64,000 nt of DNA from Parcubacteria group bacterium GW2011_GWA2_40_14 (GCA_000996025.1 LBYF01000001.1:3507-67506); one strand, 5' to 3'. Counted from the stretch's first letter, positions 5,501 through 56,844 are shown. Made by a program: numbers and translations. Notes: generated by a model not told the origin, from the letters alone.

Positions 5501-5540
5501 TTTATAAAGTTATAAAGTTTGTAAAGTTCATAAAGCTAAT
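5501..5540. repeat. Family-2 repeat (GTAAAGTTATAAAGTT words), partial copy upstream of nusA
   Basis: The sequence gtttataaagttataaagtttgtaaagttcataaagc recurs at 37634, 38802 and 56755. Confidence 0.6.
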
Positions 5541-5624
5541 TTTGATAAAAAGAATGTCCGCTCCCATGAGCGAACTTCAATGCACCTATACTATCATAAG
5601 CTCTATAGTCTTGTCAACAAAACA

Positions 5625-5672
5625 AAAAAAGAAAAACCCACCTAAGTCTTGCAAAGCAAAACTTAGGTGGGT
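5625..5672. terminator. Hairpin terminator between the convergent or divergent ends of nusA and the Clp-type ATPase
   Basis: The stem cccacctaagt...acttaggtggg is preceded by an A-run, which gives a T-run on the minus strand. Confidence 0.55.
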
Positions 5673-5698
5673 CCAATCCCAATGTTCAATCGGAAAGT

Positions 5699-6772
5699 TC
5701 ATAACGACACAGAGGTTCCCATCTCTTTGGAAAAGAGCATTTTGTCTACCGATTTTGCCAGATCAACCTTGATGATGTCGCCCAGGCCAATCTGTCCTGT
5801 GGCAATCAAATTGGAAAGTGGATAGACCAAAAACTTTTCGATCGCTCGCTTCAAATGACGCGCGCCATACTTTAGGTCCGTTCCTTGACGAAGCAGGAAT
5901 TCCTTGGCTTCTCCTGTGCATCTGAAGATGAACTGTTTGCCGGACTGCGACGCCAGGATGCGGTTCTGAACGTCGTTGAGTTCGATGTCCAGGATCTGCC
6001 TGAGGTGTTGTTGATTCAATGTGCGGAACACCACGACCTTATCGAGTCTGTTCATGAACTCCGGCGAAAACTTGCGCTTCGCCACTTCGAGAGCAGTGCG
6101 GTACATCTTCCGGTCGATATCGGCCAGATTGGATTCATCGGTCCGTACACCGGACGTGAATCCGATTCCGCCGGTCAGCATTTCACTCATCTCAACCGCC
6201 CCGAGGTTGGATGTCATGAACACCACGCATCGCGACAAGTCCACCTTGCGGTTGTCGCCTAAGGTGAGCGTGGCTTTATCCAGAATACCCAAGAGAAGCT
6301 GCCACAGCGCGTTATTGGCCTTTTCGATTTCGTCGAAGAGTATGAAACTTAACTTGCAAGTATCGGTCTGGTACTGATCAATTGCCCCCTGCGTCAAAAT
6401 CGGCGGAGTTTCGCGGTGTCCCAGATAGCCCGGAGGCGATCCGATGAGTTTCGCAATCTCATGGCTGTGCTGAAACTCGGCGCAATCGAGCTTGATAAAT
6501 GCCCGGGGGCTACCAAACAGGATTTCCGCGGAAGCTTCGACAACTCTGGTTTTTCCGGAACCGGTCGGTCCCAAAAACAGGAGGTTACCAATGGGACGAT
6601 TGGGCTGTGCCATACCTACCAGATAGACTTGGTACATGTTCACAATTTGACGAACTGCGCGATCCTGACCAATGATTTTGTTCAGCAGACCCTGTTCAAA
6701 GTCCAAGATTTCGTTGCTTTTTCTATCGGGGTTTAACACTACTTCTTCAGACTTTTTCATTACAGGCTTCAT
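5699..6772 (-). CDS. Stand-alone Clp/Hsp100-family AAA+ ATPase, D2 domain only
   Basis: Walker A (GPTGSGKTR), the sensor region and GSPPGYLGH are present, and the sequence aligns with the ClpB/ClpC second nucleotide-binding domain. It is noticeably more GC-rich than its neighbours and has a strong SD (aaaggagagact ATG). Confidence 0.8.
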   Translation of the reverse strand: MKPVMKKSEEVVLNPDRKSNEILDFEQGLLNKIIGQDRAVRQIVNMYQVYLVGMAQPNRPIGNLLFLGPTGSGKTRVVEASAEILFGSPRAFIKLDCAEFQHSHEIAKLIGSPPGYLGHRETPPILTQGAIDQYQTDTCKLSFILFDEIEKANNALWQLLLGILDKATLTLGDNRKVDLSRCVVFMTSNLGAVEMSEMLTGGIGFTSGVRTDESNLADIDRKMYRTALEVAKRKFSPEFMNRLDKVVVFRTLNQQHLRQILDIELNDVQNRILASQSGKQFIFRCTGEAKEFLLRQGTDLKYGARHLKRAIEKFLVYPLSNLIATGQIGLGDIIKVDLAKSVDKMLFSKEMGTSVSL

Positions 6773-6914
6773 AGTCTCTCCTTTGGATTAAAGCAGACAT
6801 TTAGAATTTGAAACACTATCAAAAAACAATCTGATTTACTTATAATATATTTACGAAAAAATATCAAATCAGAGTTTATCTGTTCTTATTCACACAATTT
6901 CGTGCCGGAGGAAG

Positions 6915-7015
6915 AATATTTTGATATACTAGATACGAAGTAACGAATAAGTTAACGAATTGCAACGAATAGAATCCATTCGTAGCCATTCGTGTTTTAA
7001 TTCGTTACTTCGTAT
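6915..7015. repeat. Family-1 palindromic repeat (TACGAA/TTCGTA words); abuts the pilB start codon
   Basis: This copy is the reverse complement of the copies at 491-572 and 8884-8967, and it ends ...cgttacttcgtatATG. Confidence 0.75.
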
Positions 7016-8785
7016 ATGCATATTGAAGAAAAACAATTAAAAGATTTTATTTTGGACTCGGGGCTTGTCTCGCGGGCTGACTTAACTCTGGCTGAAAAAG
7101 AAGGTCTGGAAAAGGGAGTAAGCTTGGGCAAAGTTTTGGTGAGCAAAGGAAAGCTTTCAGAAGATGATTTACGACGGATGCAGGCCTATATTCTGGGTAT
7201 TCCTTTTGTGGACCTCAAGGGCGAGAAATTGCCATTTGAAGTTCTCTCTCTTATTCCGGAGCCGATTGCTCGCAATCACAATATTGTAGCTTTCAAGAAA
7301 ACAGACTCTAGTTTGGAGGTAGCTATGTTAGACACCGAGGATTTGACTGCCATTGATTTTATCAAAAAGAAAGTAGGCCTCCGAATTTTACCTCGCTTGA
7401 CCGATGCCGACTCTGTCAAAAGCGCAATCCTCCAATATCAAAAGTCTCTCAAGGCGGAGTTTGGCGATTTAATTGCCAAGGAGGTTTCGTCACTTGAATT
7501 GAATCCGCTGAAACGAAGTGAAGGCGATGAAAACGAGGTCATAACTACGACAGAAGATTTGAAAAAAATGGCCGATGATGTGCCTGTGGTGCGCATAGTG
7601 GATACATTGCTGAAGCATGCCATTTTGCAAAACGCATCCGACATTCACATAGAGCCGCAGGAGCTGGAACTTCTGGTTCGCTATCGTATTGATGGCTTGC
7701 TTCACGATGCCATGCTCCTGCCGAAAAATGTGGGAGCATCCATTGCCGCTCGTATCAAAGTTTTGGCCATGCTCAAGCTTGATGAAAAGCGTTTGCCACA
7801 GGACGGCAGATTCAAAATTGACATGAATGGCGAGAAAGTTTCTTTTCGTGTTTCCACCTTGCCGACATATTATGGTGAGAAAACAGTTATGCGACTCCTC
7901 CGCGAAAATGTTTCCGGCTTTACACTGGAATCCCTCGGTTTTCATGGTGTGGGACTGGAGCGTATTCACAGAGCCGTCCAATCCACGACCGGCATGATAC
8001 TGGCTACCGGCCCGACTGGTTCTGGAAAAACCACCACTTTGTATACTATTTTGGATATTTTAAATACTGTTGATGTCAATATTTCCACAATTGAAGACCC
8101 AATAGAATATCAGATGAAGCGTATTAACCAAACTCAAGTTCGTCCAGAGATAGGATTAACATTTGCAAACGGATTGCGCACTTTGGTTCGCCAAGACCCG
8201 GATATTATTATGGTCGGTGAAATTCGTGACAATGAAACGGCTAATCTGGCTATAAATGCGTCGCTCACCGGTCATGTCGTTCTCTCAACACTTCATACAA
8301 ACTCTGCCGCCGGAGCCGTCCCTCGCTTGATAGATATGAAAGTGGAACCGTTTCTTATTGTTTCCACTGTTAATGTTATTATTGCCCAGCGTCTTATCCG
8401 AAAACTTGGAGATGGAAAAGAAAAATATTTTTTGACCAAAGCCGAGCTTCTAACTTTGGGCAAGAGAGTTAATTTAGACAAAGTCTTAGCTACTTTGAAG
8501 GAAGAAAAAATTGTAGGTCAAAGCGATGTTTGGGAACAAGTTCCTTTTTGGCGCCTGAAAAAGAATGTTTCATCCGAAGACGGTTTCTCCGGACGCATTG
8601 GCATTCACGAAATATTGAAAGTTTCTTTGCCAATAAAAGATATTATTCTCAAAGACGGCACCTCGGACGCAATCCAAAAACAAGCTGAAAGCGAAGGTAT
8701 GCTGACTATGTTTGAGGACGGCATCTTCAAAGCGGTACAAGGTGTAACCACCATTGAGGAAGTTCTTAGGGTTATCTCGGAATAG
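7016..8785 (+). CDS. pilB: Type IV pilus / type II secretion assembly ATPase PilB/GspE
   Basis: The ORF has an N-terminal GspE-N domain, Walker A GPTGSGKTTT, and Asp and His boxes. Confidence 0.9.
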   Translation: MHIEEKQLKDFILDSGLVSRADLTLAEKEGLEKGVSLGKVLVSKGKLSEDDLRRMQAYILGIPFVDLKGEKLPFEVLSLIPEPIARNHNIVAFKKTDSSLEVAMLDTEDLTAIDFIKKKVGLRILPRLTDADSVKSAILQYQKSLKAEFGDLIAKEVSSLELNPLKRSEGDENEVITTTEDLKKMADDVPVVRIVDTLLKHAILQNASDIHIEPQELELLVRYRIDGLLHDAMLLPKNVGASIAARIKVLAMLKLDEKRLPQDGRFKIDMNGEKVSFRVSTLPTYYGEKTVMRLLRENVSGFTLESLGFHGVGLERIHRAVQSTTGMILATGPTGSGKTTTLYTILDILNTVDVNISTIEDPIEYQMKRINQTQVRPEIGLTFANGLRTLVRQDPDIIMVGEIRDNETANLAINASLTGHVVLSTLHTNSAAGAVPRLIDMKVEPFLIVSTVNVIIAQRLIRKLGDGKEKYFLTKAELLTLGKRVNLDKVLATLKEEKIVGQSDVWEQVPFWRLKKNVSSEDGFSGRIGIHEILKVSLPIKDIILKDGTSDAIQKQAESEGMLTMFEDGIFKAVQGVTTIEEVLRVISE

Positions 8786-8790
8786 ACGAA

Positions 8791-8826
8791 GACTTCCAAA
8801 TCTGGCGCATTTCGTTGTTGGAAAGC
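8791..8826. repeat. Family-5 motif (GACTTCCAAATCTGGCG...GTTGTTGGA) immediately after the pilB stop
   Basis: The same words follow the tuf stop at 31221. Confidence 0.6.
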
Positions 8827-8883
8827 AAAAAATAAATCTTATACACAATTTTTGTGAAAATAAAATAAAATTTTGGTACAATA

Positions 8884-8967
8884 AACATACGAAATAACGA
8901 ATTAAAACACGAATGGCTACGGATTATTCGTTGCAATTCGTAGACCCATTCGTTACTTCGTATATTT
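8884..8967. repeat. Family-1 palindromic repeat; abuts the pilC start codon
   Basis: The copy ends ...cgttacttcgtatatttATG. Confidence 0.75.
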
Positions 8968-10182
8968 ATGTTATTTCATTACAAAGCACTGGATAGTACA
9001 GGGAAAGAGGTTGAGGCAAATCTGGAAGCCAAGGACAGGTTTGCTCTGTATCATGCCGTAAAAAAAGATGGCAATACAGTTATCTTTACAGAGGAAGTCA
9101 AAGCCAAAGGAAGATTTTCCTTGATAAAACTTTTACCATTTTTGGATAATGTTACAGCCCATGACAAAATAATTTTTGCCAGAAATCTTTCCAAAATGAT
9201 TCTGGCCGGTCTGCCCATTACTCGGGCCCTCTCTATTATGGAGAGGCAAGCCCGCGGCGGATTAAAGTCAGTTTTGAAAAATTTGAGTGAATCGGTAGGA
9301 AAAGGCACTACACTTTCCGAATCAATGAAAAATTTTCCAGATGTTTTTTCAACCCTTTTTACTTCAATGGTCCGAGCTGGAGAAGAATCAGGGAATTTGG
9401 CAACTAGCTTGGAGAATGTTGGTATGCAAATGGAGAAAACATACCAGCTTAATCGTAAAATACGCGGAGCAATGCTCTATCCGGCCATTATTCTGCTACT
9501 GATGGTCGCTATAGGTATTCTGATGATGGTTTATATGGTGCCGACATTAACTGCCACATTTATCGGTCTCAATTTAGACCTGCCGGTTTCTACACGCATT
9601 ATCATTTTTGTCAGTAATTTTCTAGCCGGTTATTTTACATTTTTTATTTTGGGAGTTGTGGTGACGACTGTCCTCCTCGTTTTTGCTTTTCGTAGCGACC
9701 AAGGGAAACGACTTTTAGAGGCGTTTCTTCTTCGCCTACCTATTATCGGAGAAATAGTAAAGGAGATTAATTCAGCGCGGACGGCCCGAACATTATCCTC
9801 GCTTCTTTCTTCGGGGGTGGATATTGTCTTGGCAGTCGGAGTGACAAAAGATGTCATACAAAACTCCTATTACAAAAAAGTTTTGGAAGAAGTGCAGATT
9901 AATATTCAAAAAGGAGAGGCCATCTCATCAGTTTTTTCATCTCATATTGATTTATATCCTATTTTTGTCGGGGAAATGGTAAATGTGGGAGAGGAAACGG
10001 GTAAAATAGCCGAAATGCTTAGCAATGTTGCTTTATTTTATGAGGAAGAAGTAGACCAAAAGACAAAAGATATTTCCTCTTTGATTGAACCGTTTTTGAT
10101 GATTTTTATTGGTTTGGCAGTTGGATTTTTCGCCATGGCGGTTATTAGCCCTATCTACTCATTAGGGGACTCCATACAATGA
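8968..10182 (+). CDS. pilC: Type IV pilus inner-membrane platform protein PilC/GspF
   Basis: There are two GspF repeats with TM segments. The stop overlaps the next start (ATGA). Confidence 0.9.
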   Translation: MLFHYKALDSTGKEVEANLEAKDRFALYHAVKKDGNTVIFTEEVKAKGRFSLIKLLPFLDNVTAHDKIIFARNLSKMILAGLPITRALSIMERQARGGLKSVLKNLSESVGKGTTLSESMKNFPDVFSTLFTSMVRAGEESGNLATSLENVGMQMEKTYQLNRKIRGAMLYPAIILLLMVAIGILMMVYMVPTLTATFIGLNLDLPVSTRIIIFVSNFLAGYFTFFILGVVVTTVLLVFAFRSDQGKRLLEAFLLRLPIIGEIVKEINSARTARTLSSLLSSGVDIVLAVGVTKDVIQNSYYKKVLEEVQINIQKGEAISSVFSSHIDLYPIFVGEMVNVGEETGKIAEMLSNVALFYEEEVDQKTKDISSLIEPFLMIFIGLAVGFFAMAVISPIYSLGDSIQ

Positions 10183-10643
10183 AATTAAATTATAAATCTG
10201 GGTTTACAATTTTTGAATTTCTCATAGCCATTTCTATCATGGCTCTTCTTGTGGCCATAGTATTTTCTGGTTTTATAAACTTGAGGAAACATCAGGCCTT
10301 AAAATTGGATACGGAAACTATCGCGGGAATATTACGAGAAGCTAGGAGTGAAACTCTGGCATCCAAAAATGGAACGCGATATGGAGTGCATTTCTCGGCT
10401 ACAAAAGTTACTCTCTTTGCCGGTTCTGTGTACAATCCAAGCGACCCCAATAACAAAGATTTTATGTTGAATGCAAGTGATGCAGTTTTTAACATCACTC
10501 TTGCCGGTGGAGGAAGCGATGTTATCTTTAATCGTTTGACCGGAGAAACATCGCAAAATGGCGTGATTACTCTTTCCTCCCCATCCACAGCACAAATAAA
10601 AACTGTTACAGTATACAAAACAGGAGTAGTTGAAAGTAATTAG
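10179..10643 (+). CDS. Prepilin-type N-terminal cleavage/methylation domain pseudopilin
   Basis: The N-terminus KSGFTIFEFLIAISIMALL is a class III signal (G|FTxxE plus a hydrophobic helix). Confidence 0.7.
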   Translation: MKLNYKSGFTIFEFLIAISIMALLVAIVFSGFINLRKHQALKLDTETIAGILREARSETLASKNGTRYGVHFSATKVTLFAGSVYNPSDPNNKDFMLNASDAVFNITLAGGGSDVIFNRLTGETSQNGVITLSSPSTAQIKTVTVYKTGVVESN

Positions 10644-10669
10644 GGAGTCTATAATACAATTTATATACA

Positions 10670-11158
10670 ATGTGGTCATACAATAAAAAAAACAATCGCG
10701 GTATGGCTCTAATAGAAATAGTCATAGGGGCCTCTATCATATCGGTCGGCATTTTGGCCATTTCTACCGCTTACAATACATATGTACAGCATGCTTTTGC
10801 AAACGAGAAAAATATCCAGGCGGCCTATATTTTGGAGGAGGGATTGGAAGCGGTAACACTCCTGCGTGACAAGGGGTGGAATGCAAATATCAAACTGCTT
10901 TCCACCACAACCACATATTATTTGACCTTGGTCCCGACCTACTGGGCTACCACAACCACACCACAATATATTGATGGAACATTTCTACGAAATATTGCTA
11001 TTACCGATGTAAAGCGCGACCTAAACGACCGTATCGCCACCGCAGGCACATATGACCCAAACACAAAACTAGTCACGGCGACAGTTTCCTATTTCCAAGG
11101 ACACGGCACGACCACGCGCTCCCTTTCAACTTATATAGCTAACATATATAACAACTGA
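10670..11158 (+). CDS. Pseudopilin (prepilin-type N-terminus)
   Basis: The N-terminus reads RGMALIEIVIGASIISVGILAI. Confidence 0.65.
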   Translation: MWSYNKKNNRGMALIEIVIGASIISVGILAISTAYNTYVQHAFANEKNIQAAYILEEGLEAVTLLRDKGWNANIKLLSTTTTYYLTLVPTYWATTTTPQYIDGTFLRNIAITDVKRDLNDRIATAGTYDPNTKLVTATVSYFQGHGTTTRSLSTYIANIYNN

Positions 11159-11160
11159 AC

Positions 11161-11670
11161 ATGAAAGTCCTTACATACAAATCAGGATATTCGCTTGTGG
11201 AAATGCTTATATATGTCTCTATTTTATCGGTCATTTCGTTTTTAATGGTTAGTACGGTGCTCTCTTTTATCGGCTCGTATAGACAGCTTGTGGCCTTGCG
11301 TATCGTGGAGCATTCGGGCATAGATGCTATGGAAAAAATGACTCGTGATATTCGGGCCGGTACGACAATTGATACAGTGAACAGCACATTTGGAACAAAT
11401 CCGGGTGTTTTGACTTTGATTACCACAGCAAACAATGTTTCCACTACCACAAAATTTTATCTTCAAAACGGTATTGTCAAAGTAGACATAAATGGAAGTT
11501 ATTTCGGTCCCATAACTTCCTCCACTGCATCCACAACCAGTATCGTATTTACAAAATTAAACAGCTCTATTTCTAACGCAGTAAAAATTGACATGACTGT
11601 ATCGGCTACAGTTGGCACGACAAGTAGAACGAAAACCTATCACTCCACGGTTATTTTAAAAGGACAATAG
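11161..11670 (+). CDS. Pseudopilin (prepilin-type N-terminus)
   Basis: The N-terminus reads KSGYSLVEMLIYVSILSVISFL. Confidence 0.65.
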   Translation: MKVLTYKSGYSLVEMLIYVSILSVISFLMVSTVLSFIGSYRQLVALRIVEHSGIDAMEKMTRDIRAGTTIDTVNSTFGTNPGVLTLITTANNVSTTTKFYLQNGIVKVDINGSYFGPITSSTASTTSIVFTKLNSSISNAVKIDMTVSATVGTTSRTKTYHSTVILKGQ

Positions 11671-11701
11671 GGAAAAATTTCTAATTTCTAATTTTTAAAT
11701 A

Positions 11702-13000
11702 ATGGAGCAGAAGCAAAAAATGAAATATGATAAGGGAGCGGCTATGTTAATAGCAGTGATTTTATTTTTATTTGTCTCCTCCACAATTGTTCTTGGCATT
11801 ACCGCGCCAATCTTAAAGCAAGCAAGAATTTCTACCGACCTCGTTCGTTCAAAAGAAAGTTATTATTACGCCGAAGGGGCGCTGGAAGATGCTTTTTACA
11901 GAATTAAAAATGGCAAGAGTATTAGTTCTGGAGATACAATAATTACAAACGGCTATACCACTACGATTACTATCACCACGGCATCTGGAGTTAAAACTAT
12001 TCTCGCCGTGTCAAATCGAGATGGCATTATTAGAAAAATGCAATCCCAAGTAGTTGCTGGTGTGGGAGCATCTTTTAATTACGGTGTTCAAGTCGGTCTT
12101 GGAGGTTTTGTTTTGGAAAATAGTTCAACCATAACGGGCAATATTTACTCTGGTGGTCCCATAACTGGTGCTGGAAATACCATAAGTGGCGATGCTGTTT
12201 CCTCCGGTTCCTCTGGACTTATAGATGATGTTCACATCACCAATTCAGCTTACGCTCATACCATACAAGATTCTGATGTAGATGCTAATGCTTATTATGT
12301 AATAAAAACTAACACTACTGTAGGTGGCACTTCTTTTCCAAATAGTCCAGACCAACCTGTTGCCAACCTACCCATTTCCGATGAGCAGATTGCTCTACTA
12401 GAAGCCGACGCGGTAGCCGGGGGAGTCATAAGTTCTCCTTGTCCTTACAAAATTACTTCTACAGTAACTTTGGGTCCAAAGAAAATTACATGTGATTTGG
12501 AGGTCAGTGGTAGCGCAGTTGTCACTCTTGCCGGTTCTGTTTGGGTAACGGGTGATATTGATATAAAAAACAGCGCCTTAATTAAAATATCTTCCAGTTT
12601 TCCGGAAAATACAAGTCCGGCTCTTATAGCTGACAATCCGGCCAACAGGTCTTCAGGCAGTAAGATATCTTTGCAAAACACCGCCACTTTCCAGGGCTCC
12701 GGAGGTTCCGGTAATTCAGACTCTTACATATTTGCCATATCTCAAAACAATAGCGCCGAAACAGGCGGTACAAATGACGCTATTTCTATGAAAAACAGCA
12801 GTGCCGGGGAGGTTGTGTTGTACGCTGGTCATGGACAAATAAGCATAGAGAACAGCGCTACATTAAGGCAAGTTACTGGCTACAAAATTAAAATGAAAAA
12901 CTCGGCCAATCTTATATATGAGGAAGGTCTGGCCGACACGCTTTTCTCTTCAGGACCTTCGGGTGGGTGGAATATTTCCACTTGGCAAGAAGTACAATAA
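11702..13000 (+). CDS. PilX-like large pilus-associated protein (N-terminal TM, Thr/Ser-rich beta-rich body)
   Basis: The N-terminal anchor is AAMLIAVILFLFVSSTIVLG, and the gene sits in the pilin operon. Confidence 0.5.
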   Translation: MEQKQKMKYDKGAAMLIAVILFLFVSSTIVLGITAPILKQARISTDLVRSKESYYYAEGALEDAFYRIKNGKSISSGDTIITNGYTTTITITTASGVKTILAVSNRDGIIRKMQSQVVAGVGASFNYGVQVGLGGFVLENSSTITGNIYSGGPITGAGNTISGDAVSSGSSGLIDDVHITNSAYAHTIQDSDVDANAYYVIKTNTTVGGTSFPNSPDQPVANLPISDEQIALLEADAVAGGVISSPCPYKITSTVTLGPKKITCDLEVSGSAVVTLAGSVWVTGDIDIKNSALIKISSSFPENTSPALIADNPANRSSGSKISLQNTATFQGSGGSGNSDSYIFAISQNNSAETGGTNDAISMKNSSAGEVVLYAGHGQISIENSATLRQVTGYKIKMKNSANLIYEEGLADTLFSSGPSGGWNISTWQEVQ

Positions 13001-15759: not shown

Positions 15760-15821
15760 GGGAAAATAATAGCATATCTCAGTTGTTATTCACTATTTCG
15801 GACTGTGGTAGACTGATACCT

Positions 15822-17645
15822 ATGAAAACGTATGCTATTCGTGAAGAGATTCCAAAAGATGTGTACGAGGCTCTAAGAGCGCATGATCCTCTAGTGCGCT
15901 CACTCCTTTACTCTCGCGGTGTCACAGATGGCGCTGCAGCAGATGTTTTTCTCAACCCCAACTATGATACGCATACTCACGATCCATTTTTGCTCCTAAA
16001 TATGGACAAGGTTGTGGAGAGAATTTTGAAAGCAATTGAGAGTAATGAAAAAGTAGCGATTTACAGCGATTATGATTGTGATGGCATACCGGGTGCTGTA
16101 GTTCTACACGATTTTTTAAAAAAAATAGGTTTCACAAATTTTGTAAATTATATACCAATGCGCAATGAAGAGGGTTATGGTCTAAATCACGATGCCATAG
16201 AAAGTTTGATAGCTGATGACGTGAAATTAATCATTACAATAGACTGCGGTATAACTGATTATACACATGCAGAATTTGCCCAGAGTGAAGGGATTGATTT
16301 GATTATCACAGACCACCATATTCCGGGAAAGGAAGTGCCGAAAGCATTTGCGGTGATAAATCCAAAACAAAAAGGATGCAAATATCCAGAGAAAATGATT
16401 TGCGGCTCTGGTGTCATTTTCAAAGTTGTTCAGGCGCTTATGAAAACAATGTCAAGGACTGCCCTTGACATGAATCCAAAGATGTCAAAGGCAGTCCTTG
16501 ACATTCCGCTTGGTTGGGAAAAATGGCTTCTGGATATGGTTGGTCTTGCCACGTTTTCGGACATGGTGCCGCTTGTGGGGGAGAACAGAGTTTTCTCGTA
16601 CTACGGTATGAAAGTTTTGCGTAAAAGTCCGCGAGTTGGGCTTATGAAAATGTTTAAGTCGCTCAAAATAAATCAACAAACGGTGACCGAAGACGATATT
16701 GCTTTTATGATTACACCTCGTATTAACGCCGCATCGCGTATGGGTATTCCACGAGATGCTTTTACATTACTTTCCACAACAGACGAAGTGGAGGCAGGAA
16801 AATATGCTGAACATTTAAATAAAAATAATGATGAGCGCAAAGGTGTAGTAGGAAGTATGGTCAAAGAAATAAAAAAATGGATTGCAAGTAGGGATGAAAT
16901 CCCGCCGAAGCAAAGTATAAATAAAGCTCAGGCGAATGCTACGACTGAGTCAGCTACGACAGCGATGAGGGGAGTGATTGTGCATGGCAATCCGCTTTGG
17001 AAACCGTCACTTCTTGGTTTGGTGGCAAACAGTTTTTCCGATGAACATTCACGTCCAGTATTTTTCTGGGGGCGGGAGGGCAATAAAGAGGGGAGCACGA
17101 TAATAAAAGGTTCGTGTCGTGCTGGTGGAGATACAGACGTTGTTAAGCTTATGGAAAAAGTCAAAGATATCTTAGTTGATTATGGTGGACACACGGGCGC
17201 AGGAGGATTTTCACTTCTTCAGGAAAATATTCATATGCTTGAAGAGAGATTAAACGAAGCTTTTCAGAAGCTAGCTCAGGAAGAAGAAATAATCCTTGAT
17301 ACACTCGTAGATACAAAACTCTCACTTGATGATGTGAACTGGCAGACATATTCGCACATAGAAAAATTCGCCCCATTCGGACTAGCAAATCCAAAACCGT
17401 TGTTTCTTTTTGAAAATATAATTGTTGACGCGGTGAAACAGTTCGGTAAAGATAAAAATCATTTGGAATTGAAATTTAAGAAATCAGACGGAAAAGATGT
17501 CACAGCTATCGCATTTTTCTCCACACAAGAAAAGTTCCCAGTGTCTCTCGACTCTGGAAACGTAATTAACCTCGTGGCAACTCTGGAAAAATCCACATTC
17601 CGCAACTTTCCAGAATTACGTCTGCGAATCGTAGACATTTTTTAG
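15822..17645 (+). CDS. recJ: Single-stranded-DNA-specific exonuclease RecJ
   Basis: DHH motifs (YSDYDCDG, ITDHH) and a DHHA1-like C-terminus are present. I chose the ATG at 15822; the track ORF begins at an upstream TTG (15783). Confidence 0.85.
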   Translation: MKTYAIREEIPKDVYEALRAHDPLVRSLLYSRGVTDGAAADVFLNPNYDTHTHDPFLLLNMDKVVERILKAIESNEKVAIYSDYDCDGIPGAVVLHDFLKKIGFTNFVNYIPMRNEEGYGLNHDAIESLIADDVKLIITIDCGITDYTHAEFAQSEGIDLIITDHHIPGKEVPKAFAVINPKQKGCKYPEKMICGSGVIFKVVQALMKTMSRTALDMNPKMSKAVLDIPLGWEKWLLDMVGLATFSDMVPLVGENRVFSYYGMKVLRKSPRVGLMKMFKSLKINQQTVTEDDIAFMITPRINAASRMGIPRDAFTLLSTTDEVEAGKYAEHLNKNNDERKGVVGSMVKEIKKWIASRDEIPPKQSINKAQANATTESATTAMRGVIVHGNPLWKPSLLGLVANSFSDEHSRPVFFWGREGNKEGSTIIKGSCRAGGDTDVVKLMEKVKDILVDYGGHTGAGGFSLLQENIHMLEERLNEAFQKLAQEEEIILDTLVDTKLSLDDVNWQTYSHIEKFAPFGLANPKPLFLFENIIVDAVKQFGKDKNHLELKFKKSDGKDVTAIAFFSTQEKFPVSLDSGNVINLVATLEKSTFRNFPELRLRIVDIF

Positions 17646-17678
17646 TTAACCCTTGACCACACTAATCTTTCTGATAAT

Positions 17679-17722
17679 ACACATACGTTAACTTCTTGCT
17701 ATAGCAAGAAGTTAACGTATGT
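17679..17722. repeat. Perfect 19-bp-stem palindrome with GCTATAGC centre (family-7-like) after recJ
   Basis: The sequence is cacatacgttaacttcttgctatagcaagaagttaacgtatgtg. Confidence 0.6.
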
Positions 17723-17768
17723 GGGTCTAAGAAGTTATTTATTGTGGATTGCCGTGTATAATGATGAA

Positions 17769-18449: not shown

Positions 18450-18523
18450 TTTGCATATGTATTCAAGAAACTCAATTATAATTTTGGCACAGTATATTGT
18501 ACCAAAATAGAAATATTAAACTC

Positions 18524-38320: not shown

Positions 38321-38333
38321 TAGTGTATATTAA

Positions 38334-38537: not shown

Positions 38538-38543
38538 AGAATA

Positions 38544-42732: not shown

Positions 42733-42864
42733 CACTTTGAAGAATGTAAAGTGTAAATATCAAAATGAAAAATTATAGATTAAAATTAAAAATGATGAAT
42801 TCAGAAATTTTGCATTTTACATTGTCATTTTACACTTCGATTTTTTAATTTTACATTTACTACC
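42733..42864. repeat. Family-4 repeat copy
   Basis: It has the same core as the copy at 42217. Confidence 0.8.
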
Positions 42865-43410: not shown

Positions 43411-43535
43411 ACTTTCAAATTATGACCCATCTCATCGTCTAAAATTTGAAAAAGAATCGTCACCTACGCACTCAGGTAGGCTCCAATTCTTTTTCAAATT
43501 TTATACGCGACCTAGGTCAAATTTGAAAGTTTAGG
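43411..43535. repeat. Family-5 element with a perfect 13-bp terminal inverted repeat (AAACTTTCAAATT / AATTTGAAAGTTT) and a central hairpin GTCACCTAC...GTAGGCTCC
   Basis: It has terminal inverted repeats, and its internal hairpin is shared with the copy at 56405. Confidence 0.75.
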
Positions 43536-43539
43536 TATC

Positions 43540-44487: not shown

Positions 44488-44602
44488 AATTTAAAAATCA
44501 AAATGGAAAATGACAGATTAAAATTAAAAATGATGAATTCAGAAATTTTGCATTTTGTATTGTCATTTTAATTTTTGATATTTACATTTTTAATTTATTA
44601 TC
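44488..44602. repeat. Family-4 repeat copy (in the position where rpmD/L30 would normally sit)
   Basis: It has the same core as the copy at 42217. Confidence 0.8.
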
Positions 44603-49084: not shown

Positions 49085-49129
49085 CAAAACCCTTGACTTC
49101 TGTATATACTCCGCATATACTGTGTATAT

Positions 49130-49399
49130 ATGACACAAGTAGTTATAAATTTCAAAACGGATGCTAAGCTAAAGAGCGCAGCCAAAGATGTTCTCGATGA
49201 GATGGGTCTGAATTTTTCCATTGCTTTTAACGCCTACATGAAAAAGTTGATTACTGAGAGGAGAATAGAGTTTACCACGCCAGAGATACCCAACGCTCGA
49301 CTCCGGAAAGCAATAAAAGAGGCGGATAAAGAGTATAAGAGCGGTAAGTTAAAGTTTTATACTGATATGCGCGAGATGCGCAAGTCATTAGGTGTATAA
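49130..49399 (+). CDS. RelB/DinJ-family antitoxin
   Basis: The small RHH-like protein immediately precedes a YafQ-like toxin. Confidence 0.6.
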   Translation: MTQVVINFKTDAKLKSAAKDVLDEMGLNFSIAFNAYMKKLITERRIEFTTPEIPNARLRKAIKEADKEYKSGKLKFYTDMREMRKSLGV

Positions 49400-50949: not shown

Positions 50950-50985
50950 TTGCTTTTTATTACCGTATCGATATACTGATGCTCT

Positions 50986-52056
50986 ATGAAAGTTGATACT
51001 TTGAAGCTGTCCAGAACTAAAGTTGCTGGTCTTACAAAAAAATTTGATTTAAATAACCCCGTATCGCGCAAGCTATATTTTGTGGCTAAGGTGGGTAAAG
51101 AGATAAAGGCTCTGCAAAAATATTTAAAATCGGGCAAGCGTTTTGTGGCATTTCTCATTGGTATAAAAAATTCCGGTAAAGGAACGTATGCAAAATTGTT
51201 TCTGGAAGCAGTAGGTCCTCTCGCCGTCCATATATCTATCGGGGATATTGTGCGCGATGTTCATACGAGCATCGAAACCCCAACTGGCAAGAAAAAATTA
51301 ATCAATTTTTTGAAGAAAAACTATCGCGGATTTCATAGTCCAGAAGAAACTATTAAAGCAATACTCGGACGCAGTCAATCAACTCTCATTACTTCTGAAC
51401 TTATTTTGGCCCTTATCAAATTTGAAATAAGCAAACATCCGAACCAGTCATTATTTATTGACGGTTTCCCTCGCGCTTTTGACCAGATTCCGTACTCACT
51501 CTTTTTGAAAGAGATTATTGGTTATCAAGGAGTGCCAGACGTTTTTGTTTTCTTTAATGTTCCAACCAGTGTGATTGACGAGCGCATTAAGACTCGGGTT
51601 ATTTGTCCTGTTTGCAAAACATCGAGGGGTTTGAAACTTTTGCCAACAACAAAAGTCGGATATGATGCAAAAAATAAAAAGTTTTATCTAGAATGTGACA
51701 ATCTTTCCTGTCCTGGCTCACGAATGATAGCGAAAGAGGGCGACGAGCTTGGTATAGAACCTATCCGTGAACGAATCGAAACTGATTCAAAAATTTCCAA
51801 AGAATTACAAAAAATTCACGGTGTGCCAAAAGTATTTCTGCGCAACGCCATTCCAGTTGTACACGCCAAAAAAATCGTAGATGATTACGAAATTACCCCT
51901 GAATATCAGTACAAACTAGATAAATCAGGTAAGGCGGTTATTGTAGAAGTACCATGGACAGTTAAAGACGACCAGGGAGTAAAATCTTACAGTCTCCTGC
52001 CCTCTGCGGTTGTCATTTCACTTATAAAGCAATTAGCCAATATTCTTACTAAATAA
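50986..52056 (+). CDS. Second adenylate/nucleoside-monophosphate kinase paralog with a zinc-ribbon LID and N- and C-terminal extensions
   Basis: The P-loop is GIKNSGKGT, followed by IDGFPRAFDQ and a LID with CPVC...CDNLSCPG (four Cys). Only the middle ~250 aa of the 356-aa ORF is the kinase core. Confidence 0.65.
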   Translation: MKVDTLKLSRTKVAGLTKKFDLNNPVSRKLYFVAKVGKEIKALQKYLKSGKRFVAFLIGIKNSGKGTYAKLFLEAVGPLAVHISIGDIVRDVHTSIETPTGKKKLINFLKKNYRGFHSPEETIKAILGRSQSTLITSELILALIKFEISKHPNQSLFIDGFPRAFDQIPYSLFLKEIIGYQGVPDVFVFFNVPTSVIDERIKTRVICPVCKTSRGLKLLPTTKVGYDAKNKKFYLECDNLSCPGSRMIAKEGDELGIEPIRERIETDSKISKELQKIHGVPKVFLRNAIPVVHAKKIVDDYEITPEYQYKLDKSGKAVIVEVPWTVKDDQGVKSYSLLPSAVVISLIKQLANILTK

Positions 52057-52589: not shown

Positions 52590-52868
52590 ATGAATACACC
52601 CTTAAGTCAGTTTATAAAACAGAGGCCTCATTTGATTTGGTATACCAAAAACTATGACGGTTTGGACGCCGAATCCATCGTTGAAGCTACACTAAACTAT
52701 GGTAATTGGGACGATGTGCAGGAACTTATAAAAATTCTAGGAATGAAAAAAACCGCCCAGATTTTCCGAGAAAAATCCAAACCGGATAAATTTGGCAGAC
52801 AGAATTACGATTCTCGGGTAAAAAATTATTTTCAACTATACTTTGGTAAATATGTCAAACATGCATAA
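52590..52868 (+). CDS. Hypothetical protein, possible cognate partner of the downstream AbiEii-like toxin
   Basis: The ORF overlaps the next gene by 26 nt. No family was recognised. Confidence 0.3.
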   Translation: MNTPLSQFIKQRPHLIWYTKNYDGLDAESIVEATLNYGNWDDVQELIKILGMKKTAQIFREKSKPDKFGRQNYDSRVKNYFQLYFGKYVKHA

Positions 52869-53472
52869 AGAAATTTTTACACAAGAACAGATTAAACTTC
52901 TACCTTTGATTAGGAAATTTTCCAAGGATTTCGGTCTTGTTGGTGGGACAGCCATTGCATTGCATTTAGGTCATAGGCGCTCAATAGACTTTGACATGTT
53001 TTCCAATAAACCGTTCAATAATGTGGCTGTGCGTAGGAAAATAAAAAATACGCACAGTATTCAAAAGGTCTTCAAAGACGAAACAGGACAATACACTTTT
53101 TTTGTTAATGAGGTGCAAATGACTTTTTATCATTTTCCCTATGAGATTGATTATTCGGAAAAATTTGAAGATTATGTCAAAATACCAAATCTGCTCATTC
53201 TCGCTGCGATGAAAGCTTTTGCTCTTGGTGGAAGAAATAAATGGAAGGACTATGTTGATTTATATTTTATTCTCAATAACCGTTTTTCTGTAGATGAAAT
53301 CTCCAAAAAAGCCAAAGAACTTTTCCAGGGAGAATTTAATGAAAAAATTTTTCGAAATCAGCTAGCTTATTTTGACGATATAAATTACAAGGAAACGGTG
53401 GACTTTCTGCCGGATTTTGAAGTGAGCGATGAAACGGTAAAAAAAGCTCTGATTGATTTTAGTATTTCCTGA
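52843..53472 (+). CDS. AbiEii/AbiGii-family nucleotidyltransferase toxin (DUF1814)
   Basis: GLVGGTAIALHLGHRRSIDFDMF is the characteristic DUF1814 motif. Confidence 0.7.
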   Translation: MVNMSNMHKEIFTQEQIKLLPLIRKFSKDFGLVGGTAIALHLGHRRSIDFDMFSNKPFNNVAVRRKIKNTHSIQKVFKDETGQYTFFVNEVQMTFYHFPYEIDYSEKFEDYVKIPNLLILAAMKAFALGGRNKWKDYVDLYFILNNRFSVDEISKKAKELFQGEFNEKIFRNQLAYFDDINYKETVDFLPDFEVSDETVKKALIDFSIS

Positions 53473-53654
53473 CATTGAAAGGGATATGTATAAAAACGAT
53501 TTATTTAAGTTCACAGATTTTACTTTCGAGCCCAAACACATTCAATTTTCCCAAGAAATTTTAAGAGAATCTCGAGTGCCGAACGAGGTATGGGTCATTG
53601 CTTCCCGGAAGTTCGAGTAAAATTGGACGAACTTAAAGCTATTAAAGTCACAGT

Positions 53655-54056
53655 ATGATGTTTCAAACAAAACTTTTTAAACAAGCATTCCTTCTGCTTT
53701 TTGTTGTTGGTATTTTAAATTTGGTTGGAACAGAACTATATTTGTATTGGACACTCTGGTGGTATGACATTATTCTACATTTTCTCTCTGCTGGGGTGGT
53801 TTCTCTAGCTACCATTGTATTCTTTCGCATCTTTCTTGGAAAACGGTTGTCAGGTCAGACATTAATTAAATATGCGGTTTTTTGCGCCCTAGTAGTTGGT
53901 ATTATCTGGGAAATATATGAACTTTATTTTGAGATGACATATCTTTCTGACGGCATGATTTATGTAACAGACACAGTATCAGACCTTATTATGGACATTG
54001 CAGGTGGACTTCTCGGTTCAATATATGCAATTAGATTAGTAAAAAATAATGAGTAA
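53655..54056 (+). CDS. Small 4-TM membrane protein
   Basis: The hydrophobic ORF overlaps the downstream beta-CASP gene by 8 nt. Confidence 0.4.
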   Translation: MMFQTKLFKQAFLLLFVVGILNLVGTELYLYWTLWWYDIILHFLSAGVVSLATIVFFRIFLGKRLSGQTLIKYAVFCALVVGIIWEIYELYFEMTYLSDGMIYVTDTVSDLIMDIAGGLLGSIYAIRLVKNNE

Positions 54057-55422
54057 ATTACAAATAACTTTTTATGGCGGAGTAGGCACTGTTACAGGGG
54101 CAAATTTCTTGCTTGAAAGTAATAACACCAAGATTCTTATTGATTGTGGACTATTACAAGGCACACCCGATGGAGTGGAGGAAAATAGGAAACCATTTCC
54201 ATATGATACAAAATCAATAGATTATCTTTTTATCACCCATGCTCACATGGACCATATAGGCAGAGTGTGCAAGCTAGTCAGAGATGGTTTTAGAGGGACA
54301 ATTTATTCAACACCTGAAACAAGAGAGATTGCTAGTGTCATGATTCTTGATGCATTAAAAATAATGGACCAAAATTATCGCAATCCACAAAACGGAGTTA
54401 GCGAAAGGCCATTATATGAACTAGCTGACTATAACCAAGCGTTTTCTATATGGAAAACCATAGAATATGATACCCAAACTGAAATTAATGAAGAATTTTC
54501 AGTTTATCTGAAAGATGGTGGGCATATTCTGGGCTCTGCCATGTATGAATTTAGTTATAATGGTAAAAAAGTTGTTTTTACGGGCGATTCTGGGAATTCT
54601 CCCTCACCGCTTTTGAAAAATACAGAAAATGTGACTGATGCAGATTATCTAATCATTGACAGTGTTTATGGCGACAGAAATCATGAGCCAAAAGAGGAAA
54701 GAGACCAAAGATTTAAGCAAATTATTTTAGATACGATAGAAAAAAGAGGGGCACTAGTTATTCCAGCATTTTCTGTAGAGCGAACGCAAGTTATTTTGTA
54801 TGAATTAAATAATCTAGTTGAAGAAAAAAAGATCCCATCTGTGCCAGTTTTTCTAGATTCACCTTTGGGTTCAAAAGTGACGAACATTTACGCTAGAAGT
54901 TCAAAAGATTTTAATACTGGAGTGCAGAGAGAAATAAAAGAAGGAGATGATATTTTTAATTTTCCAAAACTGACTATCACTGCGGGTTCAGGGGATTCCA
55001 AACAGATTGTCAGTATTCCAAATCCCAAAATAATCGTGGCGGGTTCAGGAATGTCTTCTGGTGGCAGGGTATTGTGGCACGAGATGCAATACTTGCCAGA
55101 CCCAAAGAACACAGTACTTCTCATGGGCTACCAAGCACTTGGCACATTGGGTAGAAGAATACAGGACAAACCAAAGGAAGTGGAAATACATGGTCAAATC
55201 GTACCCATTCGTGCTCGTATAGAAATGATTTCCGGCTACTCATCGCACAAAGACTCTGATAGCTTGGTGGCTATGGTTGAGCAAACAAAAGCTACGTTGA
55301 AAAAAGTTTTTGTAGTCATGGGCGAACCAAAGTCATCCACATATCTGGCCCAGCGTCTGCGCGATGAGCTTCTCGTGGAAGCTATTTACCCAGAAAAAGG
55401 CAAACCTTATCTATTGGAGTAA
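54049..55422 (+). CDS. Beta-CASP / MBL-fold RNA-metabolising metallo-hydrolase (RNase J/CPSF-like)
   Basis: ITHAHMDHIG (HxHxDH), DSVYGD, and a beta-CASP middle region with an RNA-specificity C-terminus are present. Confidence 0.8.
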   Translation: MSKLQITFYGGVGTVTGANFLLESNNTKILIDCGLLQGTPDGVEENRKPFPYDTKSIDYLFITHAHMDHIGRVCKLVRDGFRGTIYSTPETREIASVMILDALKIMDQNYRNPQNGVSERPLYELADYNQAFSIWKTIEYDTQTEINEEFSVYLKDGGHILGSAMYEFSYNGKKVVFTGDSGNSPSPLLKNTENVTDADYLIIDSVYGDRNHEPKEERDQRFKQIILDTIEKRGALVIPAFSVERTQVILYELNNLVEEKKIPSVPVFLDSPLGSKVTNIYARSSKDFNTGVQREIKEGDDIFNFPKLTITAGSGDSKQIVSIPNPKIIVAGSGMSSGGRVLWHEMQYLPDPKNTVLLMGYQALGTLGRRIQDKPKEVEIHGQIVPIRARIEMISGYSSHKDSDSLVAMVEQTKATLKKVFVVMGEPKSSTYLAQRLRDELLVEAIYPEKGKPYLLE

Positions 55423-55925: not shown

Positions 55926-56059
55926 CTGTTATGAGGAAACGCTTTAAAAATAAGAGAGAGAGTCATGTGCTTTATGTAAACCCCATAAGCGAGGTTGGGC
56001 AATGCGCTGGAGTTCAAAAGAAGCCGAACTACTTAGAGTTTTTGAAAGAGAGAAGGCTC

Positions 56060-56404
56060 TTACTTTGCGAATTCCAGAATTTTTTTAAATGTATTAGGAT
56101 TTTCAATAACAAGAGTAGCTAGAATTTTGCGGTCTAGGAGGATGCCTTTCTTTTTTAAACCACCCATAAGTTTGCTATATGATGTCCCAAGTTCTTTTGA
56201 GGCGTATGAAATTTTGACATTCCAGAGTTTGCGAGCGTCGCCCTTTTTGTCTCGTCTGTGCGCAAAAGCGTAAGCTCCAGCGTGAAAGATGGCTTCTTGG
56301 GCTTCCCGCTCCTTTGTAGAACGGCCATGTCGATAGCCTTTTGTCTTACGAAGAATGTTTTTACGATTCTTTAATGCATTGACCCCTTTTTTTACTCGTG
56401 TCAT
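56060..56404 (-). CDS. rplT: 50S ribosomal protein L20
   Basis: MTRVKKGVNALKNRKNILRKTKGYRHGRS is typical of L20. Confidence 0.9.
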   Translation of the reverse strand: MTRVKKGVNALKNRKNILRKTKGYRHGRSTKEREAQEAIFHAGAYAFAHRRDKKGDARKLWNVKISYASKELGTSYSKLMGGLKKKGILLDRKILATLVIENPNTFKKILEFAK

Positions 56405-56530
56405 AAATGTTACGATTTACATATTTGGCCAATCTCTGCGTTAAAACTGCAAAAATGCTCGTCACCTACCAACGAGGTAGGCTCCTCAATTTTTGCAATT
56501 TTGCCTTGATATTGTCTCAAATCTGTAAAT
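56405..56530. repeat. Family-5 element forming the rplT 5' leader (minus strand); GAGATTGGCCAAATATG lies 20 nt upstream of the ATG
   Basis: It shares the 14-mer gagattggccaaat with the rpsL leader and the hairpin CGTCACCTAC..GTAGGCTCC with the copy at 43411. Confidence 0.7.
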
Positions 56531-56563
56531 CTCGTTTTCATAATTATTTTTAATTTTTAACTT

Positions 56564-56752
56564 TTAATTTGTAATAAATCTTGCCTTATCTTTGTTACTC
56601 ATCGGGAAATTGACCATGCCTTTTTTGGCAAGTTGAGAACGGCGACTTTCTTTTGCATTGAAATGGTTTTGACCAGTTTTTCTTGCCGAAATTTTTCCAT
56701 TCTTGCTGACTTTTAGTCGTTTTGTAAAACTTTTATTTGTTTTTGTGCTCAT
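56564..56752 (-). CDS. rpmI: 50S ribosomal protein L35
   Basis: The small basic ORF (MSTKTNKSFTKRLKVSKNGK) sits between infC and rplT. Confidence 0.85.
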   Translation of the reverse strand: MSTKTNKSFTKRLKVSKNGKISARKTGQNHFNAKESRRSQLAKKGMVNFPMSNKDKARFITN

Positions 56753-56754
56753 AT

Positions 56755-56844
56755 GTTTAGTTTGTAAAGTTATAAAGTTTGTAAAGTTTCTAAAGTGGAA
56801 TGCATTTGATGTTACTTTATGAACTTTATAACTTTATGAACTTT
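56755..56844. repeat. Family-2 palindromic repeat between infC and rpmI
   Basis: The copy reads tttgtaaagttataaagtttgtaaagtttctaaagt...ctttatgaactttataactttatgaactttc. Confidence 0.75.

Follow-up and report, generated by a model that had tools for sequence, protein, structure and literature searches.

In the 64,000-nt stretch of DNA from Parcubacteria group bacterium GW2011_GWA2_40_14 analysed here (GCA_000996025.1, LBYF01000001.1:3507-67506; referred to below as the window), spacers of the ribosomal-protein operons are occupied by imperfect palindromes built from short repeated words. We call these units cassettes, and the set built from AAAGTT words family 2. The cassettes are lineage-specific, multi-copy units that replace the stop-to-start spacers of highly expressed, co-transcribed genes. 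As to their role, we tentatively propose that they are copy-and-paste intercistronic cassettes which may act in mRNA as translational-coupling or initiation modules.

Full family-2 cassettes of the window run from stop codon to start codon

Read on the coding strand, family-2 units begin with three to five purine-rich N-TAAAGTT words (NTAAAGTT) repeated with a period of 8 or 9 nt. An A-rich loop of 17-24 nt follows, and then three to five complementary, G-poor AACTTTA-N words (AACTTTAN), the tail AAACTAAA, another 3 nt (3-5 nt over the cassettes of all families) and the ATG. The arms measure 28-29 nt and are 86% complementary; cassettes overall are 80-125 nt long. Searching the window with GTAAAGTTATAAAGTT (at most two mismatches) yielded 6 matches against 0.16 expected from shuffles, and none of 100 shuffles reached 6. 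The matches mark four places (5504; 37641; 38798 and, on the minus strand, 38852; 56764 and, on the minus strand, 56822), and clusters of at least three AAAGTT/AACTTT words are confined to the same four places in the 64 kb.

The rpsC-rplP copy (37625-37721, plus strand; identified from sequence and RNA fold) spans the rpsC stop codon (37631-37633) and extends to the rplP ATG at 37722. Its 5' arm (about 37630-37664) consists of AAAGTA/AAAGTT words of period 8-9; the loop lies at about 37665-37687, and the 3' arm (about 37688-37715), made of ACTTTAnAA words, is followed by the tail AAATTT. In the predicted RNA fold (dG -19.1, z -4.5), the outermost helix is formed between UUUAU in the start region and the sequence around the stop codon. 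The rpsQ-rplN copy (38784-38878, plus strand, from sequence and RNA fold) has its 5' arm at 38793-38820, its loop at 38821-38844, its 3' arm at 38845-38872 and the tail AAAATT, and ends at the rplN ATG (38879). Here the rpsQ frame stops within the 5' arm (stop 38799-38801), and ribosomal protein S17 gains the residues ESS; the fold has a dG of -21.2 and a z of -6.3. The third full copy, on the minus strand (56753-56850; sequence and RNA fold), separates the infC stop (TAG, 56847-56845) from the rpmI ATG (56752-56750) and folds with a dG of -21.1 and a z of -4.4. Altogether the folding energies of these three copies lie between -19 and -21 kcal/mol, with z between -4.4 and -6.3, and none of 200 shuffles folds equally well. 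The neighbouring genes are confirmed by Pfam: nusA (4256-5491, minus strand), infC (56845-57354, minus strand), rpmI (56564-56752, minus strand), rpsC, rplP, rpsQ and rplN.

The fourth place is different. Directly 5' of the nusA ATG (5491-5489) lies a one-armed copy (5499-5540, minus strand) of four AACTTTAN words and the tail CTTATTTGT, that is, the start-proximal arm alone; it forms no palindrome and its fold is not significant (z -1.3). This array sits in a leader of about 95 nt, after a terminator hairpin (5640-5675) and a promoter-like TTGACA-18-TAGTAT. It also holds (5489-5535, minus strand) a 9-codon upstream open reading frame (ORF; ATGAACTTT through TAA) that reads ATG AAC TTT ACA AAC TTT ATA ACT TTA TAA and ends 10 nt before the nusA ATG.

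The sequence-only reading had described a palindromic family-2 repeat in four spacers (upstream of nusA, rpsC-rplP, rpsQ-rplN and infC-rpmI), and folding bears this out for the last three, the nusA copy being one-armed. Its statement that the palindromes run up to the ATG of rplP and rplN is borne out by the copy ends, CTTTATAAACTAAATTT and CTTTATAAACTAAAATT, each directly followed by ATG; the infC-rpmI copy, on its coding strand, likewise ends in CTTTACAAACTAAACAT and ATG. That the repeats are discrete units rather than low-complexity composition also holds, for the copies align, with pairwise identities of 75-92%, and their word clusters occur at the four gene junctions alone. Besides the single arm at nusA, this reading had missed that cassettes often reach into upstream coding sequence at its 3' end, that the design recurs with at least 10 different words over the lineage, and that orthologous copies are strongly conserved. 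The window cassettes are base-for-base identical across 8 independent metagenome assemblies, with no population polymorphism among the 8, and so are not assembly artefacts.

In terms of helix geometry, upstream stop codons lie at or within the 5' base of the helix, and pairing ends 9 nt (median) ahead of the ATG; the predicted outer helix of the rplP and rplN copies includes two bases of the AUG, its A and its U. Triple-frame stops immediately ahead of the ATG number 10, against 6.5 +/- 2.3 for shuffled sequence, which is no enrichment. No Rfam 15 family matches the cassettes, a transfer-messenger RNA (tmRNA) being the sole hit above threshold in the window; in a permissive scan of 37500-39000, the best matches were eukaryotic hairpin families with 14-25 bits against thresholds of 35-130.

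Sister word families at further junctions

The claim that nearly every spacer of the ribosomal-protein operons carries a palindromic unit proved correct: hairpins of three other families, CGAG, ACGAAT and AAAATG, occupy another 11 stop-to-start junctions in the window. Beside the four family-2 copies (three full, one half), the 64 kb thus holds 13 copies of sister families, two of which, a one-armed ACGAAT array before rpsS and a full ACGAAT hairpin upstream of rsmE, lie outside the 11 junctions.

The CGAG/ACTCGTA cassettes are found between rpsL and rpsG (23838-23936, plus strand), rplC and rplD (33618-33710), rplN and rplX (39244-39335), and rplX and rplE (39545-39637); two more start within the 3' ends of rplD and rplV and run to rplW (34349-34438) and rpsC (36884-36973), respectively. 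These hairpins encode C-terminal extensions of L4 (33711-34427) and L22 (36546-36962), L4 having 238 residues in the window against about 215 in relatives, some 20 more. The start of the longest rplX ORF, 39288, is an ATG in a hairpin loop; the real rplX start is probably 39336. The AAAATG/CATTTT family has copies between rpsN and rpsH (42222-42345, plus strand), rpsH and rplF (42741-42864), and rpsE and rplO (44479-44602), which are 86-96% identical, loops included. ACGAAT/ATTCGT cassettes lie upstream of the gene for a pilB-like ATPase (6930-7015, plus strand), between pilB and pilC (8881-8967) and upstream of rsmE (489-580), and the one-armed copy upstream of rpsS occupies 36061-36100. All 14 two-armed copies at stop-to-start junctions of the window precede internal cistrons, and the promoter-proximal genes of the translation-gene set, nusA and rpsS, both carry one-armed copies. 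The cassettes keep a fixed orientation relative to the downstream gene.

The cassettes are insertions particular to some lineages

The closest species representatives belong to Candidatus Zambryskibacteria (Parcubacteria/Paceibacterota, in the candidate phyla radiation, CPR), with L16 proteins 72-94% identical, and the host of the window is assigned to this group; the exact S3 protein also occurs on GCA_001824095.1 and several groundwater metagenome contigs. We compared 80 related species; genomes and contigs used for comparison carry L-numbers below. In most of these species the S3-L16 spacer is 1-20 nt long (e.g. AATACTACC) and the S17-L14 spacer 3-20 nt, and S17 ends in HFRIV in hairpin-free genomes and in HFRIVESS in hairpin-bearing ones. 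Since the same spacers are short in most related species, the hairpins are lineage-specific insertions; the sequence-only reading was right to call them odd in a compact genome, and the comparison with relatives that it had proposed finds most of these without hairpins. Across the S10-spc spacers most genomes are compact throughout, and a minority, among them the window, L009, L015, L019, L023, L037, L045, L048 and L051, is hairpin-rich. On a crude ribosomal-protein tree the hairpin-rich genomes form several small clusters or single leaves amid compact relatives.

Constraint on sequence and a signal on the coding strand

Orthologous cassettes diverge little. Between L045 and L051, fourfold-degenerate sites are 0.59 identical and other long spacers 0.39-0.55, against 0.89-0.91 for orthologous cassettes. 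Between the window and L010, where fourfold sites are saturated (0.38), the arms are about 0.93 identical and the loop is not conserved; between L019 and L023 the values are 0.47 for fourfold sites and about 0.9 for arms. Such sequence comparisons argue firmly that orthologous cassettes are held under strong constraint.

A second signal concerns ATG. The 3' halves of the hairpins, taken from the loop to the true start, contain 7 ATG, against 32 CAT in the 5' halves, while the opposite pairing is balanced (76 ATG in 5' halves against 81 CAT in 3' halves). In family 2, the CAT linkers of the 5' arm face ACA or AAA, not ATG, in the 3' arm, and word families that contain ATG always put the ATG word in the 5' arm. 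This avoidance of ATG is a translation-level constraint on the coding strand: the form of the cassettes answers to what the downstream start codon requires.

Copying between spacers and turnover of words

At least ten word families occur across the hairpin-rich genomes (AAAGTT, AAAAGTT, ACGAAT, CGAG, AAAATG, GATTAAA, AATGAATAA, CTAATT, TTTTCAAT, GTAAGA and CTAGG), and all follow one plan: words rich in purines, a loop rich in A, complementary words poor in G, then a short tail and the ATG. In 44 of 54 hairpins a 5-mer is present at least twice in the 5' half and its reverse complement at least twice in the 3' half. Loop composition is shared as well, an A-run ending in AATTC, ATCC or GCATTC being recognized by reading. 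The family at a given junction can differ between sister genomes, as in L009, which has AAAAGTT hairpins where the window has CGAG. In other metagenome contigs (L090-L093) the TAAAGTT array stands alone or is joined to arrays of unrelated words; the arrays thus behave as modules.

L019 has three identical 125-nt ACGAAT copies, each spanning exactly the interval from the stop (plus 1-3 nt) to the ATG. Their left flanks are the stop followed by GA, AGT or T, and their right flank is directly ATG; neither a remnant of the ancestral spacer nor a flanking duplication is found at the three copies. In L023, the rpsE-rplO hairpin has arms with the word and linker order of the rpsC-rplP copy of the window, and an unrelated loop. 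One arm differs between L045 and L051 by exactly one word, which points to slippage. Compensatory differences are seen between word variants alone, namely AAAGGTT/AACCTTT (L009), TAAGTT/AACTTA (L015, L069) and AAAGTC/GACTTT (L048, L051). We conclude that cassettes spread by copying between spacers and gain or lose whole words via slippage.

Occurrence beyond the ribosomal-protein operons was followed with motif scans of metagenome and viral contigs, for which counts hold among the matches listed; the metagenome scan was not selected for ribosomal loci. Among the metagenome matches listed, family-2 hairpins lie upstream of secY, rpsC and rpmG and downstream of rplS and of the L25 gene; the hairpin also stands between rplS and tRNA-Leu. 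An origin in phages was considered and rejected: the loose word pattern matches many viral contigs, yet the hairpin architecture appears at 1 of 120 viral against 8 of 120 metagenome loci among the matches listed.

Translation and promoter signals of the host

A Shine-Dalgarno (SD)-like tetramer precedes 9 of the 89 ORFs examined, and just 6 of these are on credible genes. With SD sites at fewer than 10% of genes, internal operon cistrons must be reached without them. In 26 of 62 genes TANNNT lies 6-8 nt upstream of the ATG, where its frequency has a sharp peak; a TTGnnn hexamer frequently stands another 16-19 nt upstream, as in TTGACT-17-TATACT-8-ATG at 49130 (other sites: 49085-49132; 3657-4300, minus strand; 26940-26972; 50950-50988). 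The upstream sequences suggest that first cistrons are as a rule read from leaderless mRNAs. In the family-2 tail a TAAACT stands 6-7 nt before the ATG; no -35-like hexamer is found at 16-19 nt in the family-2 copies (at most 2 of 6 matches), and a consensus scan reports neither promoter nor terminator on the sense strand at the hairpins. As intrinsic terminators the hairpins do not qualify either: their A/U-rich stems are followed by AAAUUUAUG rather than by a U-tract, and a terminator scan does not call them.

A possible role in translational coupling, and the alternatives

That genes can be coupled through RNA unfolding or through scanning ribosomes is well established, with E. coli rpmI-rplT among the examples (PMC12548453). 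In the tentative model that we propose, the cassette would be transcribed inside the operon mRNA and fold into an A/U-rich helix of about 30 bp, with the upstream stop and the downstream AUG at the helix base. The 3' arm and tail would constitute the G-poor, AUG-free and SD-less initiation region of the downstream gene, which the 5' arm would mask until the ribosome terminating upstream opens the helix at its base. Downstream translation would stay coupled to the upstream gene, via RNA unfolding and/or re-initiation, despite the roughly 85 extra nt, and the one-armed copies (nusA, rpsS) would represent the unmasked version. In the predicted folds the helix sequesters the downstream initiation region and has the stop codon within reach, which is the structure that coupling by RNA unfolding calls for.

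Several observations weigh against this model. The abutment to stop and start is partly a trivial result of insertion into a 10-nt spacer. Two full copies, those of pilB and rsmE, precede first cistrons, and one-armed arrays occur at internal junctions in relatives. On a metagenome contig, a family-2 hairpin fills the whole 81-nt spacer between tRNA-Phe and tRNA-Pro, where translation is irrelevant. The sequence of both arms is conserved beyond their ability to pair, which a pure pairing model would not need. Within family 2 there is no covariation: in an alignment of eight copies the 23 pairs almost never vary, and with base pairs invariant the covariation test is uninformative. Finally, antisense RNA is predicted to be the more stable (31 against 12 hairpins, p = 0.009), and G-U pairs favour antisense folds (170 against 110 in sense). 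An asymmetry of wobble pairs had been considered as proof of a sense-strand helix; the outcome was the opposite, and there is thus no wobble signature of selection for such a helix. Avoidance of ATG in the 3' half accounts for much of the excess in antisense stability.

The cassettes might instead be selfish, non-autonomous palindromes similar to MITEs (miniature inverted-repeat transposable elements), repetitive extragenic palindromic (REP) sequences or Rickettsia palindromic elements (RPEs). They would have no function of their own and be tolerated because a self-folding insert spares the stop-start spacing. We find this rather unlikely as a full account, and the data pull both ways. Presence is patchy over the 80 species, with rich genomes scattered amid compact ones; near-identical copies lie at different spacers of one genome, one family occupies non-orthologous sites between species, and one spacer holds different families in sister genomes. 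Copies also enter coding 3' ends, lengthening S17, L4 and L22, as RPEs do in Rickettsia. Selfish inserts would not be expected, however, to be about 90% identical between orthologous sites where fourfold sites are at 38-59% and other spacers at 39-55%, with arms conserved and loops randomised, nor to concentrate in the most selection-sensitive operons with strand-specific orientation and ATG avoidance. The copies stop precisely at the ATG, leaving nothing of the former spacer and showing no target-site duplication, and no transposase, integrase or REP-associated tyrosine transposase (RAYT) is present among about 40 window proteins. The readings considered here are not mutually exclusive, as a self-copying element can also be functional. 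Sites of RNA processing or stability would explain long, almost uninterrupted helices: RNase III or another endonuclease would cut the helix of about 30 bp, or the helix would block exonucleases, so that cistrons and tRNAs are separated and short, unstructured leaders free of AUG are left, as would suit a host that favours leaderless-like initiation. Hairpins between tRNA-Phe and tRNA-Pro and between rplS and tRNA-Leu fit this proposal, as do ATG avoidance in the downstream arm alone (a cleaved leader), the leaderless-type promoters of the genome and the presence of a gene for a beta-CASP RNase; Correia elements of Neisseria, bound or cut by RNase III, provide a precedent (PMC2649163). RNase III reads helix shape, though, which leaves conservation at the sequence level unexplained, the sense strand folds less well than the antisense strand, and no rnc gene was seen in the window. 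On balance processing seems an unlikely role.

A role at the DNA level would make the hairpin irrelevant, the palindrome being no more than sites placed in inverted order. Each 8-9-bp word would be the site of a DNA-binding protein, in the manner of MetJ boxes or omega-repressor heptads, or a DNA-uptake signal. A core of 5-6 nt is indeed conserved in sequence across species while the linkers of 2-3 nt vary, one-armed arrays, and arrays of different words standing next to each other, occur in L090, L091, L092 and L093, and the window encodes type IV pilus genes and ComEC. Yet four families in one genome and at least ten in the lineage would demand as many specific proteins, and a DNA-only role predicts neither the strand-specific orientation and ATG avoidance nor the constant abutment to start codons or tRNA 5' ends. 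Moreover, the sole unusual DNA-binding gene nearby, for a protein with four helix-turn-helix (HTH) domains (40878-41912), is absent from other hairpin-rich loci, and we regard the proposal as improbable. The least credible account, to which we give hardly any weight, has the cassettes combine a terminator with a promoter: the 3' arm and tail would bring a -10 box (TATAAA/TAAACT) to 6-8 nt before the ATG, and downstream genes would be read from leaderless mRNAs. It draws on the strong enrichment of TANNNT at this distance, on the TAAACT of the family-2 tail at 6-7 nt and on one copy of the AAAATG family with TTTACA-17-TACATT-7-ATG. Against this, family 2 lacks a -35-like hexamer, the CGAG tail TAACTCTA is without the -10 invariants, the helices are not followed by a U-tract, and the scan reports no promoter or terminator at the hairpins.

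One further idea, decidedly unlikely in our view, is that the G-poor words are an SD-independent enhancer of initiation, read by the ribosome through protein S1 or a segment of rRNA and packaged with its own complementary mask into a portable, self-propagating unit. The family-2 word resembles the epsilon sequence of T7 (UUAACUUUA). If this were true, an enhancer-plus-mask module pasted between any genes, or before a tRNA, would create an obligatorily coupled junction. The cassettes would then form a class of mobile regulatory RNA not recognised before, passed between species and remodelling the translation of operons in CPR bacteria that lack SD sites.

Other features of the window

The rplF-rplR spacer holds a non-periodic structured element of about 130 nt (43411-43539), in which AACTTTCAAATTATGACC and GGTCAAATTTGAAAGTT enclose an inner hairpin (dG -45). 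It is 93% identical between the window and L010, whose fourfold sites are saturated, and related pieces occur at 38139-38175, 56442-56502, 23284-23354 and 22369-22396 and in the S3-L16 spacers of L009, L015 and L040. This element may be a ribosomal-protein leader that has escaped recognition, or belong to a further family of elements. A third type of insert is found at the same junctions as the hairpins, in the S17-L14 spacers of L017 and L037 (186-187 nt) and the S3-L16 spacers of L060 and L087 (166 and 207 nt). Its pattern is CGACT, (GAGCAT/CACGAC)CC, a long-range stem, GGGNGGTGATTTTTATAATC(A/G)CTTCG and TTAAAAATCAAC, in this order.

Two perfect palindromes, at 40268-40313 (46 nt) and 31761-31798 (38 nt), share a core in which ATACACCTATCAYACGCTA adjoins TAGCGTRTGATAGGTGTAT. 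Several public contigs stop at about 41.3 kb, just past the 40.3-kb palindrome, and L001 is an inverted-duplication chimera folded back near it. An identical 30-nt terminator-like hairpin is found at 2435-2464 and 26904-26933.

Non-ribosomal genes are embedded in the ribosomal-protein clusters. Between rplE and rpsN, inside the spc operon, lies the gene for the protein with four tandem XRE-type HTH domains (40878-41912); as a candidate reader of the words it was rejected, because it occurs in this genome's assemblies alone and not at other hairpin-rich loci. An 88-residue ORF lies between rplB and rpsS (35627-35893), a gene for an 852-residue protein with no Pfam match between fusA and tuf (26970-29528), and 31926-32291 is also listed as an embedded non-ribosomal gene. 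The tmRNA gene (61444-61842, minus strand; Rfam, 76.9 bits) was missed by ARAGORN; there are no tRNA genes in the window. A type IV pilus/competence set (pilB-like, pilC-like, three prepilins and ComEC) is encoded, together with RecJ, RNase H, an AbiEii toxin and a beta-CASP RNase, within 7016-13000, 15783-19999 and 52843-55422. Gene orientation flips from minus to plus at 6772/7016 and the cumulative GC skew has its minimum near 6 kb; the orientation switch and skew minimum at about 5.7-7.0 kb could mark a replication origin.

Significance and relation to known systems

Genomes of CPR bacteria (Patescibacteria) are among the smallest and most gene-dense known, and the S10-spc cluster is the most conserved stretch of bacterial genomes. 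In some lineages almost every junction of this cluster nonetheless carries a hairpin of 80-125 nt that is conserved far beyond synonymous sites. Either compact genomes put up with, and keep, a novel kind of repeat in the operons where they are most sensitive, or an undescribed device passes ribosomes from one gene to the next. The cassettes offer a sequence-defined handle on the SD-less translation of internal cistrons. They also affect annotation, through false start codons (rplX, 39288 against 39336) and artificial C-terminal extensions, and may disturb the assembly of metagenome-derived genomes.

In searches of the literature on CPR bacteria (palindromic repeats, MITEs, SD and leaderless initiation) we found no description of these elements. 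Their sub-repeat architecture is unusual, and so is their niche, which is probably a functional one. Integron attC sites and the Vibrio cholerae repeats are species-specific imperfect palindromes between ORFs, with conserved arms and a variable centre, that affect translation of the next ORF. Unlike these, the cassettes have no GTTRRRY/RYYYAAC cores (their words give GTTATAA and GTTCATA), no integrase is encoded in the window, and their neighbours are universally ordered ribosomal-protein genes, not mobile cassettes.

RPEs, reportedly described by Ogata and colleagues in 2000, are similar in behaviour, on which this comparison rests: they are dispersed palindromes of about 100 nt in a reduced genome, fall into several families, are patchy between relatives and extend genes in frame, as the cassettes do in S17 (3 residues), L4 (about 20 residues) and L22. 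They differ in not consisting of 8-9-nt words, in not being concentrated at stop-to-start junctions, in having no fixed orientation to start codons and in belonging to another host phylum: RPE-1 to RPE-8 are families of Rickettsia, and the host here is one of the Zambryskibacteria. Closest in position are the mycobacterial interspersed repetitive units (MIRUs), said to have been reported by Supply and colleagues in 1997; both PMC12548453 and PMC3184786 mention them. These are intercistronic operon repeats in one orientation, variable in unit number, whose ends overlap stop and start codons, an overlap interpreted as preserving translational coupling. MIRUs, however, are direct tandem repeats of 46-101 bp that code for short peptides, and not hairpins of 8-9-nt words.

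[quoted passage not shown] We rejected this identity, as the cassettes have a period of 8-9 nt with variable linkers of 2-3 nt and no CCA/UG boxes, and no Nop-domain protein is among the window proteins scanned. With REP sequences and the related bacterial interspersed mosaic elements (BIMEs) and REP doublets (REPINs), the cassettes share the nature of transcribed extragenic palindromes in operons, which can stabilise the upstream mRNA and form long-lived sequence families (PMC3184786). Yet a REP is a stem of 20-40 nt, rich in G+C and mostly found 3' of genes, with GTAG and a RAYT, whereas the cassettes are A/U-rich, pair over about 30 bp and lack GTAG; no such Y1 transposase is among the window proteins scanned.

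Like MITEs and Correia repeat enclosed elements (CREEs), the cassettes are short, non-autonomous, multi-copy and variable in presence between strains or species, with inverted-repeat ends; Correia elements are, in addition, co-transcribed with their neighbours and form mRNA hairpins that affect expression (PMC2649163, PMC10969869, PMC2229807). Inverted repeats, a size of 50-500 bp, no coding capacity and many copies at unrelated sites are features of MITEs that the cassettes possess. Their arms, on the other hand, are arrays of sub-repeats and not one terminal inverted repeat, they fill the stop-to-ATG interval exactly, and their orthologues are constrained. A target-site duplication was not found at the L019 copies, whose flanks are so rich in A/T that a 2-nt TA duplication is not strictly excludable, and no cognate insertion sequence or transposase was found among about 40 window proteins.

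For the coupling that we tentatively propose, the nearest parallels are structure-mediated, as in E. coli rpmI-rplT and MS2 coat-lysis/replicase (PMC12548453), and the infC-rpmI-rplT operon is also home to one of the cassettes. Each known case is a single structure, specific to its gene and SD-containing, whereas the cassettes, for which coupling is predicted, are portable, repeated and SD-less.

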